DNA of 61,278 nt, taken from contig JBJMQQ010000052.1 in NCBI GenBank assembly GCA_045802645.1, positions 1 to 61,278 of the forward strand, given 5' to 3'. A program made the position numbers and the translations under genes. Source of the stretch: Polyangia bacterium (GTDB lineage: Bacteria; Myxococcota_A; Polyangia; Fen-1088). Below are positions 37,984 to 40,862 of the stretch, one piece after another (the stretch's first letter is position 1; every line of letters begins with the position of its first letter). The notes under the pieces are model-generated. The model worked only from the letters and a program-made list of their open reading frames with translations, was not told the DNA's origin and ran no database searches.

Positions 37984-39098
37984 TGCGTTACATCCATCAG
38001 CTAGCGGGTTGGCCGGATTTTCGGTGGGACGACGGTCAGTTAGCGCGGCGACTTGGCCCCGTGCGTCACCGGCAGGGGCGGCTCGTCGGGCGGATGGAGG
38101 CGCTTGGATACGATTTTCGGGCACACGCAACGCTCCGCGCGCTCACGGAAGAGGTCGTCAAGTCGAGCGACATCGAAGGAGAAGTCCTGGACGACGCCCA
38201 GGTGCGATCCTCGGTGGCGCGGCAGCTCGGACTGGAGGTCGCAGGCCTGATCCCCAGCGATCGCGAGGTCGATGGTGTCGTCGAGATGCTGCTCGATGCC
38301 ACGCAGAAGTTCGCGGAGCCGCTGACGGCCGACCGGCTCGCTTCGTGGCATGCGGCCCTGTTTCCGACCGGGCGCGCCCGGATGACGAAGATGACGGTCG
38401 GTGCCTGGCGGACGGATGCGTCGGGGCCCATGCAGGTCGTCTCTGGTCCCATCGGTCGCACGCGCGTGCACTTCGAGGTCCCAAGCGCGCAGCGGCTCGA
38501 CGCCGAGATGCGCGGGTTCCTCGAGTGGTTCAACGACGAAGGGCAATCCTTCGACCCCATCATCAAGGCAGCCCTCGCGCACCTGTGGTTCGTGACGGTG
38601 CATCCGTTCGACGACGGAAACGGTCGAATCGCGCGCGCGATCACTGACCTCGCCCTTGCTCGTTCCGAGCAATCTCCGCAGCGGTTCTACAGCATGTCGT
38701 CCCAGATCCGCGCCGAGCGAAAGACCTACTACGAGACGCTGGAATCTGCTCAAAAGGGGACTCTGGACGTCACCGAATGGTTGTTGTGGTTCCTGGCCTG
38801 TCTCGATCGGGCGTTCGACCGCGCCGAGACGATTGTCGGTTCGGTGCTCCAGAAGGCGCGGTTCTGGGAAGCGCACGGGACGGCGCCGCTGAACGAACGG
38901 CAGCGCGCGATCCTGAACCGGCTCCTCGACGGATTCGAGGGCAAGCTGACCTCGTCGAAGTGGGCGAAGCTCGCGAAGTGCTCGCAAGACACCGCGCTGC
39001 GCGACATCGACGACCTCGTCGCGCGCGGCGTACTGGCCAAGAACCAAGCGGGCGGGCGCAGCACCAGCTACTCGCTGGTCCTTCCACCGCGTCAGTGA
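37983..39098 (+). CDS. Fic family protein with DUF4172 N-terminus and C-terminal wHTH
   Basis: YIHQ..WP.FRWD, SSDIEGE, HPFDDGNGRIAR, CSQDTALRDI, GGRSTSY. Confidence 0.93.
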   Translation: MRYIHQLAGWPDFRWDDGQLARRLGPVRHRQGRLVGRMEALGYDFRAHATLRALTEEVVKSSDIEGEVLDDAQVRSSVARQLGLEVAGLIPSDREVDGVVEMLLDATQKFAEPLTADRLASWHAALFPTGRARMTKMTVGAWRTDASGPMQVVSGPIGRTRVHFEVPSAQRLDAEMRGFLEWFNDEGQSFDPIIKAALAHLWFVTVHPFDDGNGRIARAITDLALARSEQSPQRFYSMSSQIRAERKTYYETLESAQKGTLDVTEWLLWFLACLDRAFDRAETIVGSVLQKARFWEAHGTAPLNERQRAILNRLLDGFEGKLTSSKWAKLAKCSQDTALRDIDDLVARGVLAKNQAGGRSTSYSLVLPPRQ

Positions 39099-39997
39099 GC
39101 GAACACCAGCGATTGATGCGCTGAGATTCCGGCGCGTGCGCCGTCGGCGATCGCGTACGTGACGCTGTGCTGAGCGATCGCGGCGTCCCCGCAGGCGAAC
39201 ACGCCCGCGACGGTCGTCTCCTTCGTGCGGGGGTCCGTCTTGTAGATGGAACCGGTCGGCACGATCTCGGTCTCGCACCCCAGCTGTCGGGCGAAGTCGC
39301 CCGGCAATGAGGTCCGCGGCATCGCGAACAGCGCCGCTACGTGGTAGCGCCGCCCGCCATCGACCACCAGCTCCAGCCCGCCGGGCGCATCTCGCGCTTC
39401 GAGCAGGCGTTCGGTCTCGACGCGGATTCCCCGTTCAGCGAGGATCGCCGCCTCCGCTGGGTCGGGGGGCAGCGCCCCGGCGTCGACGAACAGCACCGTC
39501 TGCCCCGGCGCGCCCCATTCCGCGACGAGGGACGCGTAGTGCACGGCGTTCGCACCGGACCCGAGCACGCCCAGCTTCCCGCGATCGAGCTCGTACCCAT
39601 CGCAGTACGGGCAGTGAAATACGGTCTTTGCCCAGCGCTCGCTCAGCCCCGGGACGGACGGCATGCCGTCGACGACCCCGTGCGCGAGGATGAGTCGCCT
39701 GGCCGTTCGCGTCTCGCCGCCCGCGCCGACGGCAAAGCCGCCAGCGACAGCCCGGGCGCCGCCGGCCGGCGCGTCCAGCCAGCGCACGGTCGGGTACCGG
39801 AGCACCTCGGCTTTCGCCTTGGTCCAGATGGCGGCCGGCGCCGCGCCGTCGTGCCCCAAGATGCCGTGCGCGTGGGACACGTCGCGGTTGCGCCGCTGGC
39901 CGGCGTCGACGATCAGCACCTCGCGTCGCGCACGCCCCAGCTGCAGCGCCGCGGCCAACCCGGCGTAACTGCCACCCACGATGACGACGTCAATCAT
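39092..39997 (-). CDS. Thioredoxin reductase-like NAD(P)/FAD oxidoreductase
   Basis: IVGGSYAGL, FHCPYCDGYE, GVFACGD. Confidence 0.9.
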   Translation of the reverse strand: MIDVVIVGGSYAGLAAALQLGRARREVLIVDAGQRRNRDVSHAHGILGHDGAAPAAIWTKAKAEVLRYPTVRWLDAPAGGARAVAGGFAVGAGGETRTARRLILAHGVVDGMPSVPGLSERWAKTVFHCPYCDGYELDRGKLGVLGSGANAVHYASLVAEWGAPGQTVLFVDAGALPPDPAEAAILAERGIRVETERLLEARDAPGGLELVVDGGRRYHVAALFAMPRTSLPGDFARQLGCETEIVPTGSIYKTDPRTKETTVAGVFACGDAAIAQHSVTYAIADGARAGISAHQSLVFAH

Positions 39998-40565
39998 GGC
40001 GGGCGGTGTCGCAGCTGCAGTCGAGGCAGCCGTGTTCGGCGCACGTCCCGCACGAACGCGCGAGCTGCTTCCGCAGCGCCTCACGGGCGCGAAAGATCCG
40101 AACGCCCGCGTTGCTGGGCGAGATCCCGTTCGCCTCGGCGTAGTCTTTCACGGCGACCTGCTCGATCTCGATCCGCCGCAGGGCATCCGCGTACTCCGGC
40201 TTGAGCGTATCGGCCAGCCTGAGGATGCAGCCGCACGCGACGGCGGCGACCTCCTGCTCGGCCTCGCCGCCGCCCGCGTCCAGCTCGGCGGCGAACTGGT
40301 CGAGCCGCCGATCCGCCACCGTTTGCCGGCGCTGATGGTCGATGACGGCGTTGCGCAGGACCCGATAGAACCACCCGACGACCGACTCCCGTATTTCGTC
40401 GCCGCGCTCGAGGCTGCGTATGAACGCCTCCTGCACGATCTCCTCGGCCAGCGCGCGGTTGCCGACCCGCCGCTCGACGAAGCCGAGAAACTCCCGGTGA
40501 TTGGCGACCAGGACCTCGACCACCTGTGGCGTGACGGCGTCGGCGCCCGATGTCTCATCCTGCAT
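39990..40565 (-). CDS. CorE-like (ECF44-type) ECF sigma factor with Cys-rich C-terminus
   Basis: AEEIVQEAF, WFYRVLRNAVID, CGC linker motif, VRIFRAREAL, tail CGTCAEHGCLDCSC. Confidence 0.88.
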   Translation of the reverse strand: MQDETSGADAVTPQVVEVLVANHREFLGFVERRVGNRALAEEIVQEAFIRSLERGDEIRESVVGWFYRVLRNAVIDHQRRQTVADRRLDQFAAELDAGGGEAEQEVAAVACGCILRLADTLKPEYADALRRIEIEQVAVKDYAEANGISPSNAGVRIFRAREALRKQLARSCGTCAEHGCLDCSCDTARHD

Positions 40566-40576
40566 GCGGTTTGAAG

Positions 40577-40602
40577 TGTAATGCGACGACTCGCGCTGCG
40601 TC
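40577..40602 (+). promoter_or_regulatory. Putative ECF promoter TGTAAT-N16-CGTC
   Basis: -35/-10 ECF-like motif oriented toward the Cys-rich peptide gene. Confidence 0.6.
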
Positions 40603-40651
40603 TTCCTCATTGAGAGCAGGCAATGGAGCCGGCCTCGAAACGGAGAACGCC

Positions 40652-40822
40652 ATGGAAAAGCCGAACCAGAACTCGAATCCGAATCAGAACGACTGCCGCT
40701 GCCAGAACGCCTCGTGCGGGTGCGCCGGTGCCCAGCCGCAGCCGTGCACCTGCGGCGAGCGCTGCGACTGCACGCCCACCTGCCAGTGTGGCGGTGGCTG
40801 CAACTGCCAGAGCGCGAAGTGA
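40652..40822 (+). CDS. Metallothionein-like peptide (56 aa, six CxC)
   Basis: GGAGA RBS; MEKPNQNSNPNQNDCRCQNASCGCAGAQPQPCTCGERCDCTPTCQCGGGCNCQSAK. Confidence 0.8.
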   Translation: MEKPNQNSNPNQNDCRCQNASCGCAGAQPQPCTCGERCDCTPTCQCGGGCNCQSAK

Positions 40823-40827
40823 TGACC

Positions 40828-40862
40828 CAGGGAGGCGTGCCCGCCAGGGGCGCGCCTCCCTG
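40828..40862 (+). terminator. GC-rich hairpin after the metallothionein-like gene
   Basis: CAGGGAGGCGTGCCC-GCCAG-GGGCGCGCCTCCCTG. Confidence 0.65.

Follow-up and report, generated by a model that had tools for sequence, protein, structure and literature searches.

The window considered here, a 61,278-nucleotide (nt) stretch of the genome of a Polyangia bacterium (contig JBJMQQ010000052.1 of assembly GCA_045802645.1), contains a locus of three close-packed genes, encoding a flavoprotein (39092-39997, minus strand), an extracytoplasmic function (ECF) sigma factor (39990-40565, minus strand) and a small cysteine (Cys)-rich peptide (40652-40822, plus strand). We consider it probable that the locus is a two-gene metal-response module, composed of a sigma factor acting as sensor and a thionein-like peptide, with a lineage-specific third gene, that of the flavoprotein. 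Judged by sequence comparison, the clade to which the sigma factor belongs, its promoter and small Cys-rich genes travel together, and because the promoter of the clade sits before the peptide gene, the peptide is very probably the output of the sigma factor. An earlier note on this DNA had pointed to a CGC linker and a Cys-rich tail in the sigma factor, an 8-nt overlap with the flavoprotein gene, a TGTAAT-N16-CGTC motif, a 56-residue open reading frame (ORF) and a hairpin, all of which are present. It had also proposed that the output of the system is a metal-sequestering peptide that could close a feedback loop, with a disulfide reductase resetting the thiols; comparison of promoters and loci supports the link from sigma factor to peptide, while the reductase part of the loop is unsupported.

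The predicted -35/-10 elements of the peptide gene, TGTAAT-N16-CGTC, lie at 40577-40602 on the plus strand and are the sole match to this ECF-type motif in the window, where 0.09 matches are expected and 9 of 100 shuffles contained at least one. Such a match is weak evidence alone, and its significance derives from the comparative data. These comprise the best 80 of 176 sigma loci from a scan of species genomes, and 13 non-redundant loci from related genomes (93 loci together); as all were selected by sigma similarity, the frequencies given below describe this clade only. Across both strands of these 80 loci, 478,226 bp in all, TGTAA[T/G]-N16-CGTC, or TGTAAK-N16-CGTC, has 62 matches spread over 48 loci, against 0-3 matches for each other spacing between 12 and 21, none for the reversed motif and 0-1 for six scrambled versions. 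Relaxing the motif (C allowed at position 6, N15-17) gives 71 matches in 55 of the 80 loci. The sites adjoin the sigma genes of the relatives, and the motif precedes the sigma gene or a peptide-sigma operon in at least 10 loci (L033, L035, L071, L094, L095, L097, L098, L102, L103 and L104). A motif upstream of an ECF gene itself is a classic sign of the factor's own promoter, and is the usual way by which target promoters are recognised. The motif upstream of the Cys-rich gene, to which the earlier note had pointed, is on this comparison a copy of a conserved promoter that accompanies the sigma clade across phyla.

The genes found behind the motif in the relatives, assigned with Pfam for 10 representatives, include E1-E2 P1B ATPases with HMA or YHS/HMBD N-termini, an HMA (CopZ-like) chaperone, Cupredoxin_1 proteins and a TolC-like OEP protein, and further an SMR protein, a DUF4396 protein and an HMBD lipoprotein. 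CPCALGLATP, YN...P and MS(L/F)SSVSV..N(S/A)LRL occur in each of the 12 full-length ATPases, and together we take them to be the Cu(I)/Ag(I) P1B-1 signature. Given this signature and the other genes behind the motif, the clade looks copper-centred, as CorE is. Two loci (L005 and L009) have paired back-to-back motifs (at about 2130-2200 and 3410-3490, and 2520-2585 and 3860-3925, respectively) before divergent genes, the divergent pairs being TolC-like protein and cupredoxin, or CopZ-like protein and CopA-type ATPase. One locus can therefore hold four predicted sigma-dependent promoters, as a compact copper regulon round the sigma gene.

Small Cys-rich ORFs also stand behind the motif. For the first 16 of them (the window and 15 loci) the motif or a one-base variant lies 30-70 nt before the likely ATG in every case, as TGTAAT or a one-base variant of it in 12 and as TGTAAG in 4. 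The arrangement relative to the sigma gene varies, the ORF being upstream and divergent, upstream on the same strand (as an operon), or downstream on either strand. An automatic rule was then applied, taking the first ORF preceded by a Shine-Dalgarno (SD) sequence within 160 nt of the motif and keeping those with no more than 80 amino acids, at least 5 Cys and at least 14% Cys. By this rule 21 of 79 motifs in the examined loci are followed by a small Cys-rich ORF, one of which (L091) duplicates L001; the ORFs of L060, L092, L024 and L026 were missed by the rule and found by eye. The synteny between small Cys-rich ORFs and CorE-like genes that the earlier note had put forward as a check is found in 24 of the 93 loci outside the window (16 of 80, and 8 of 13 in related genomes), 20 of these by the automatic rule and 4 by eye, with several peptide starts also set by eye.

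Several types of peptide exist behind the motif, that of the window having about 50 residues and six CxC pairs. In sigma paralogues of the same genus (L094, L095, L097, L102 and L104; also L033 and L035) an ORF of 23-27 codons, CPCDPC..CPPGCPCG, opens the sigma operon behind the motif, and in two others (L098 and L103) the motif is followed by an ORF of 53 codons ending CDCDDCDCPxCxPGCC. The sigma tail varies with the peptide type, taking forms such as CGTCATHGCYQC.C, CGACAE(H/R)GGYLCEC and CAAG..LRDC.C.C, and this joint change in sequence hints at co-evolution. At L014 (1-270, minus strand) the ORF behind the motif is Cys-rich in its first ~30 residues (7 Cys) and continues into a domain containing 'DGPFAETKE' before it ends at the contig edge; it may be a fused form of the peptide.

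The peptide of the window has 56 amino acids, 12 of them Cys (21%) in six CxC pairs, and contains no F, W, Y or H. It thus carries the operational marks of a metallothionein, namely low mass, a high content of Cys in CxC/CxxC and a lack of aromatic residues. Searches against Pfam (including the prokaryotic metallothionein family) and NCBIfam returned no family at E<=0.1, and the top three ESM Atlas clusters (0.88-0.89) are nameless. A word-index search for homologues gave no candidate and was superseded by a profile search that does without a word index. Built from 8 peptides, the profile was run against 1.84 billion representatives and at E<=1e-3 matched 46 proteins, which mostly have 46-52 amino acids and align over their full length. 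In the 8 homologues beside sigma genes 11 Cys are invariant, and the 10 pairwise ratios of nonsynonymous to synonymous substitution (dN/dS) among five close homologues all fall within 0.20-0.62, on a short alignment of 50 codons. By these sequence measures the peptide is under purifying selection, and is metallothionein-like in composition while standing outside every described metallothionein family.

It could be argued that GC-rich intergenic DNA has produced both the ORF and the motif by chance and that no peptide gene is present, as the chance probability of the window motif is ~0.09, and 7 of the 8 peptides were absent from an exact look-up in a collection of 15 billion proteins (the eighth is a 'hypothetical protein'). 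We give this view almost no credence, as it is contradicted by the comparative data: the invariant Cys across 8 loci, the mostly full-length profile matches, a dN/dS below 1 in every pair and a conserved arrangement of promoter, SD and ATG. The divergent Cys-rich ORF picked out at the start is, by the comparative record, a real, conserved and mostly unannotated gene.

The sigma factor has 191 amino acids and comprises Sigma70_r2 (residues 21-82, E 5.6e-12) and Sigma70_r4_2 (residues 113-164, E 5e-06), with no further Pfam domains; its best NCBIfam matches are SigZ models, at 84 and 83 bits against cut-offs of 212 and 169. It has the linker motif C111-G-C113 and ends in the Cys-rich tail CGTCAEHGCLDCSC at residues 172-185. 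Among its relatives 77 passed the filters (N-terminus covered, stop codon present, 150-205 amino acids, tail pattern present), and once four near-duplicates (L008, L016, L022 and L052) were dropped, the remaining 73 were aligned with the window protein (74 sequences). C111 and C113 are invariant in 74 of 74 rows, which were selected by the tail pattern and not by CxC; C172, C175, C180, C183 and C185 are invariant too, in their case by construction, as the tail pattern was the row filter. The tail consensus C-G-[TS]-C-A-E-H-G-C-L-D-C-x-C is nearly constant across phyla. CorE-like (ECF44) factors are defined by acting independently of an anti-sigma factor, by a CxC between their sigma domains and by a C-terminal domain rich in Cys, and most known members are found in a metal-related neighbourhood (PMC4937300, PMC6851896, PMC8999054); the group has since been merged into ECF238, which includes SigZ (PMC7826278). 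The window protein has sigma-2 and sigma-4.2 domains only, a CxC linker, a Cys tail and no adjacent anti-sigma gene, and so is CorE-like, as had been suggested, on the published marks of its sequence rather than on a tree or an alignment to CorE or CorE2.

Drawing on CorE and CorE2, we envisage the sigma factor as a cytoplasmic, anti-sigma-independent sensor in which metal would bind the linker CxC together with the C-terminal Cys cluster. Once bound, the factor would switch form and direct RNA polymerase to the TGTAAT-N16-CGTC site at 40577-40602. This promoter would drive the 56-residue peptide with its six CxC pairs; the link between promoter and peptide rests on comparison, and recognition of the site by the sigma factor is presumed. 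The peptide is most likely a thionein that buffers a thiophilic metal, and such sequestration would lower the metal signal at the sigma factor, giving negative feedback. In this organism the flavoprotein is predicted to be co-translated with the sigma factor. As to the metal, Cu(I) is the leading candidate, given that the genes for which the sigma factor's relatives appear to use this promoter encode CopA-type ATPases, CopZ-like chaperones, cupredoxins and TolC-like proteins; Zn or Cd, both sensed by CorE2, could also be the metal.

The genome from which the window comes (an assembly of 5.89 Mb in 290 contigs, 85% complete) contains one CorE-like sigma gene at E<=1e-8. Scanning it with the motif gave 5 matches where the reversed control gave 7, which is no genome-wide enrichment. 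Only the site in the window combines the extended form TGTAATG...TGCGTC with an SD and an ATG after it, the other four matches (L082-L085) having been judged by eye.

There are several points that weigh against the two-gene module as we read it. The choice of metal depends on P1B signature motifs and on the regulons of relatives sharing 40-63% identity. An AlphaFold2 model of the sigma factor, built with the 74 sequences, has a mean predicted local distance difference test (pLDDT) of 86, but the Cys tail reaches only 44-59 and the model shows no joint metal site formed by CxC and tail. The class of the factor was set by the published descriptions of CorE-like factors. The peptide matches no metallothionein family, and the eukaryotic metallothionein clusters of the ESM Atlas are weak (0.76-0.81). 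Lastly, as the assembly is 85% complete and in 290 contigs, the unassembled part of the genome may hold further targets, for example an ATPase.

A different role for the peptide would be to regulate the sigma factor as its partner, as a mini-protein resembling a metallochaperone or an anti-sigma factor, which passes metal to the Cys cluster or strips metal from it, and in this way sets the threshold and the shut-off of the response. The sigma-peptide pairing is tight and one-to-one across phyla, the Cys peptide of 23-27 residues opens the sigma operon in seven loci (L033, L035, L094, L095, L097, L102 and L104), peptide type and tail sequence change together, and the peptide is the only evident sigma target in its own genome, all of which would suit such a partner. 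However, many loci of the clade (69 of 93) are without such a peptide and drive efflux genes in its place, so the sigma factor needs no peptide partner; CorE and CorE2, too, work without an anti-sigma factor (PMC4937300). We therefore regard a regulatory partner as unlikely, and keep to the reading of the peptide as a metal-buffering output.

The third gene (39092-39997, minus strand) encodes a protein of 301 amino acids starting MIDVVIVGG, a Pyr_redox_2 flavoprotein (Pfam, E 1.1e-21), which the earlier note had taken for a disulfide reductase that resets thiols. Its best phmmer matches in the PDB are 3fbs, an unnamed oxidoreductase (1.9e-86), DepH (1.4e-73), HlmI (4ntd; 7e-38) and GliT (2.3e-28), while true thioredoxin reductases match at E 1e-12 or weaker; the thioredoxin reductase model TIGR01292 scores 50 bits against a cut-off of 343. 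According to one study (PMC4894451), the dithiol oxidases that are independent of nicotinamide adenine dinucleotide phosphate (NADP) have C-P/L-Y/F-C instead of the CAT/VC of thioredoxin reductases, have lost GGGDxAxE and the four basic NADP-anchoring residues, and in the DepH/GliT type make disulfides with O2. The window protein has the redox motif CPYC, within an FHCPYCDGYE that aligns with FHCPYCHGYE of DepH, and in place of GGGDxAxE it has GSGANAVH, where DepH has GSGPLSYL. At the four NADP-anchoring positions, which are E138, A197, S198 and D202 in DepH, the alignment places G, A, G and D of the window protein, none of them basic. On its sequence the protein is a dithiol oxidase homologue of the NADP-independent DepH/GliT/DnoP type, with flavin adenine dinucleotide (FAD) as the expected cofactor, and not a disulfide reductase. 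As the closest characterised relatives make disulfides with O2, resetting thiols by reduction would run in the wrong chemical direction for this family. A low-molecular-weight thioredoxin reductase, which is how the disulfide reductase of the earlier note was understood, is unsupported, given the TIGR01292 score below cut-off, the CPYC and the weak PDB matches.

The linkage of the oxidase to the other two genes, whose lack of conservation had been named beforehand as what would refute the proposed system, is not conserved. An oxidase homologue lies beside the sigma gene in 1 of the 80 loci (L001). Of 41 genus and class genomes, its own included, 4 have a homologue at E<=1e-30, and in 3 of these the oxidase gene directly follows the sigma gene. 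These three belong to one genus, and are the genome of the window (G000), G011 (the L001 genome; 85% identical, the 8-nt overlap likewise present) and G020 (53% identical, ~124 nt between the genes). At L060, among the four closest sigma lineages with a sigma factor 81% identical, there is no oxidase downstream. Among 401 genomes of the phylum 9 have a flavoprotein homologue at E<=1e-40, and the 8 other than that of the window have no sigma gene, motif or peptide within 1.5 kb. The comparison makes the oxidase a lineage-specific add-on found in three genomes of one genus, which the module does not need elsewhere; its linkage to the sigma gene, and the corrected chemistry, are what is new in this window. 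As a side observation, the L060 sigma gene (2986-3639; the 81% identity applies to its best segment) runs out of frame after about residue 95, probably through a frameshift in the assembly of this long-read metagenome bin; the peptide gene there is intact, as is the promoter.

Several roles may be proposed for the oxidase at this locus. It could be unrelated to the thiols of the peptide or the sigma factor, a DnoP-like, stand-alone defence enzyme that re-oxidises dithiol toxins (of the gliotoxin/holomycin type, which chelate zinc) and merely shares the operon. This fits its closest characterised relatives, DepH, HlmI and GliT, and the example of DnoP (PA4170) of Pseudomonas aeruginosa, a member of the DepH group that re-oxidises dithiol zinc chelators, is induced by disturbed zinc homeostasis and lies outside a biosynthetic cluster (PMC11317636), as the window flavoprotein does. 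The confinement of the sigma linkage to three genomes, its lack at L060 and the isolated homologues elsewhere in the phylum agree with such a role. The 8-nt overlap retained in G011 does not, nor does the adjacency that persists in G020 at 53% enzyme identity, which suggests selection for co-expression; a thiol-oxidising enzyme beside two proteins with Cys clusters is also suggestive. We place the defence role just short of an even call.

Alternatively, the DepH-type oxidase may be an O2-using switch of the metal circuit, oxidising the CxC pairs of the thionein or the CxC and tail of the sigma factor, releasing metal and so turning the sensor off or on, with Cys mini-proteins as an overlooked standard output or co-sensor of CorE-like sigma factors across phyla. 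If true, this would couple a metal-sensing sigma factor to the oxygen or redox state of the cell through a dedicated flavoenzyme. We think it quite improbable, and less likely than the unrelated, DnoP-like role.

A last proposal would make the peptide the precursor of a disulfide-rich secreted or modified peptide, akin to ribosomally synthesised and post-translationally modified peptides, with the DepH-type oxidase closing its disulfides. The peptide is indeed small and Cys-rich, and DepH-family enzymes form disulfides in natural products (PMC4894451). However, 22 of 24 peptide loci outside the window lack the oxidase, the promoter is one common to copper-export genes, the known substrates of the oxidase family are small molecules, and there is no leader-like region, signal peptide, transporter, protease or modifying enzyme nearby in the window. 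Such a precursor is very improbable.

In Myxococcus xanthus, CorE drives copA and copB, and relatives of the window sigma factor likewise appear to drive P1B ATPases. The described targets of CorE and CorE2 are efflux pumps, a multicopper oxidase and a glyoxal-oxidase/Kelch protein, whereas the only evident target in the window is the Cys-rich peptide. The tail of the window protein packs 5 Cys into 14 residues, while the CorE-like domains reported have 6 Cys in 28-38 residues (PMC4937300). SigZ of Bacillus subtilis (ECF238 subgroup 9), like the window sigma factor, has no anti-sigma factor and has C-terminal cysteines; unlike it, SigZ has two tail cysteines and a barely studied function (PMC7826278), and the window protein scores far under the SigZ cut-offs. 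The flavoprotein aligns with DepH end to end and shares its CPYC and its lack of GGGDxAxE and of basic NADP-anchoring residues; unlike DepH, HlmI, GliT and DnoP, it is predicted to be translationally coupled to a sigma gene of metal-sensing type, beside a thionein-like gene.

The closest parallels to the module as a whole are SmtA/SmtB of cyanobacteria and MymT under RicR in Mycobacterium, in which a small Cys-rich cytoplasmic protein is switched by its own metal sensor. In these the regulators are repressors (of the ArsR/SmtB and CsoR families), whereas that of the window is a sigma factor. The Cys patterns of SmtA and MymT presumably also differ from the six regularly spaced CxC pairs of the window peptide. 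To our knowledge few bacterial metallothionein families are known, and the characterised ones are under repressor control. MymT is described as a copper-protective metallothionein within a copper regulon (PMC10141476). No description of a sigma-thionein pairing was found in the literature on metallothioneins with ECF sigma factors or with myxobacteria, a search whose range did not extend to the supplements on ECF238 contexts and promoters; metallothionein is unmentioned in two CorE reviews, and no paper on this sigma group was among the matches listed for TGTAAT and CGTC with sigma factor.

If the module is as we propose, control of a thionein-like peptide by a sigma factor that senses metal as a single protein would differ from these designs and be very compact. 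From the comparison there also come a candidate promoter consensus for CorE-like factors of this clade (TGTAAK-N16-CGTC) and a predicted copper-centred regulon, and the same data reveal several unannotated families of Cys-rich mini-genes behind the motif in myxobacteria, Acidobacteriota and other phyla. This bears on genome annotation, given the 7 of 8 peptides missing from the 15-billion-protein collection, and on the design of metal biosensors.

The predicted transcript of the peptide gene has two hairpins. A short GC-rich stem-loop in the predicted 5' untranslated region (UTR), at 40610-40638 on the plus strand between the predicted -10 and the SD, folds at -12.7 kcal/mol with a z-score (z) of -3.3 (ViennaRNA). 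Comparable 5' hairpins, differing in sequence but keeping the pairing, have z < -1.5 in 18 of 20 peptide loci (mean -3.1), as against 7 of 21 for other genes behind the same promoter (mean -0.7). The peptide loci with the 5' UTR hairpin are the window, L001, L002, L012, L026, L030, L031, L036, L038, L041, L048, L050, L060, L092, L094, L095, L102 and L104, and the stem-loop could be a 5' stabiliser or a regulatory element. Directly 3' of the peptide stop is a GC-rich hairpin with a 14-bp stem (40829-40861, plus strand), where a 71-nt stretch folds at -43.9 kcal/mol (z = -3.5) and none of 200 shuffles was as good. It is a possible terminator without a T-tract, as no T-run follows it and the consensus terminator scan made no call.

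The genes of the locus are tightly fitted to one another. The flavoprotein ATG (39995-39997) and the sigma stop codon (39990-39992) fall within the 8 nt (39990-39997) that both genes have in common. On the other side the peptide ORF starts 86 nt from the sigma start codon, on the opposite strand, with a GGAG (40642-40645) 6 nt 5' of its ATG. Within this gap (40566-40651) the -35 element of the peptide promoter begins 12 nt from the sigma start codon, on the opposite strand; the sigma factor's own promoter must therefore lie within the peptide promoter or gene, which would give transcripts with a head-to-head overlap and possible mutual interference. Neither the ORF list nor Pfam revealed an anti-sigma domain in the neighbours of the sigma gene, which are a Fic/DUF4172 protein, the flavoprotein and the peptide gene. 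The Fic/DUF4172 gene (37983-39098, plus strand) is convergent with the oxidase gene, their stop regions overlapping by 7 nt (39092-39098), and the Fic-type NCBIfam matches of its product are far under cut-offs. The flanks are not metal-related, and hold a PMT_2 glycosyltransferase, the Fic/DUF4172 protein, a lipoprotein with a weak GH79-like match, a cellulase, and TPR and RRM proteins, so that the metal module is a small island among unrelated genes. A scan of 38900-41200 for sigma-70 promoters found no site, and a terminator scan of the same region found one terminator-like site, at 40976-40962 on the minus strand, which is unrelated to the hairpin after the peptide gene.

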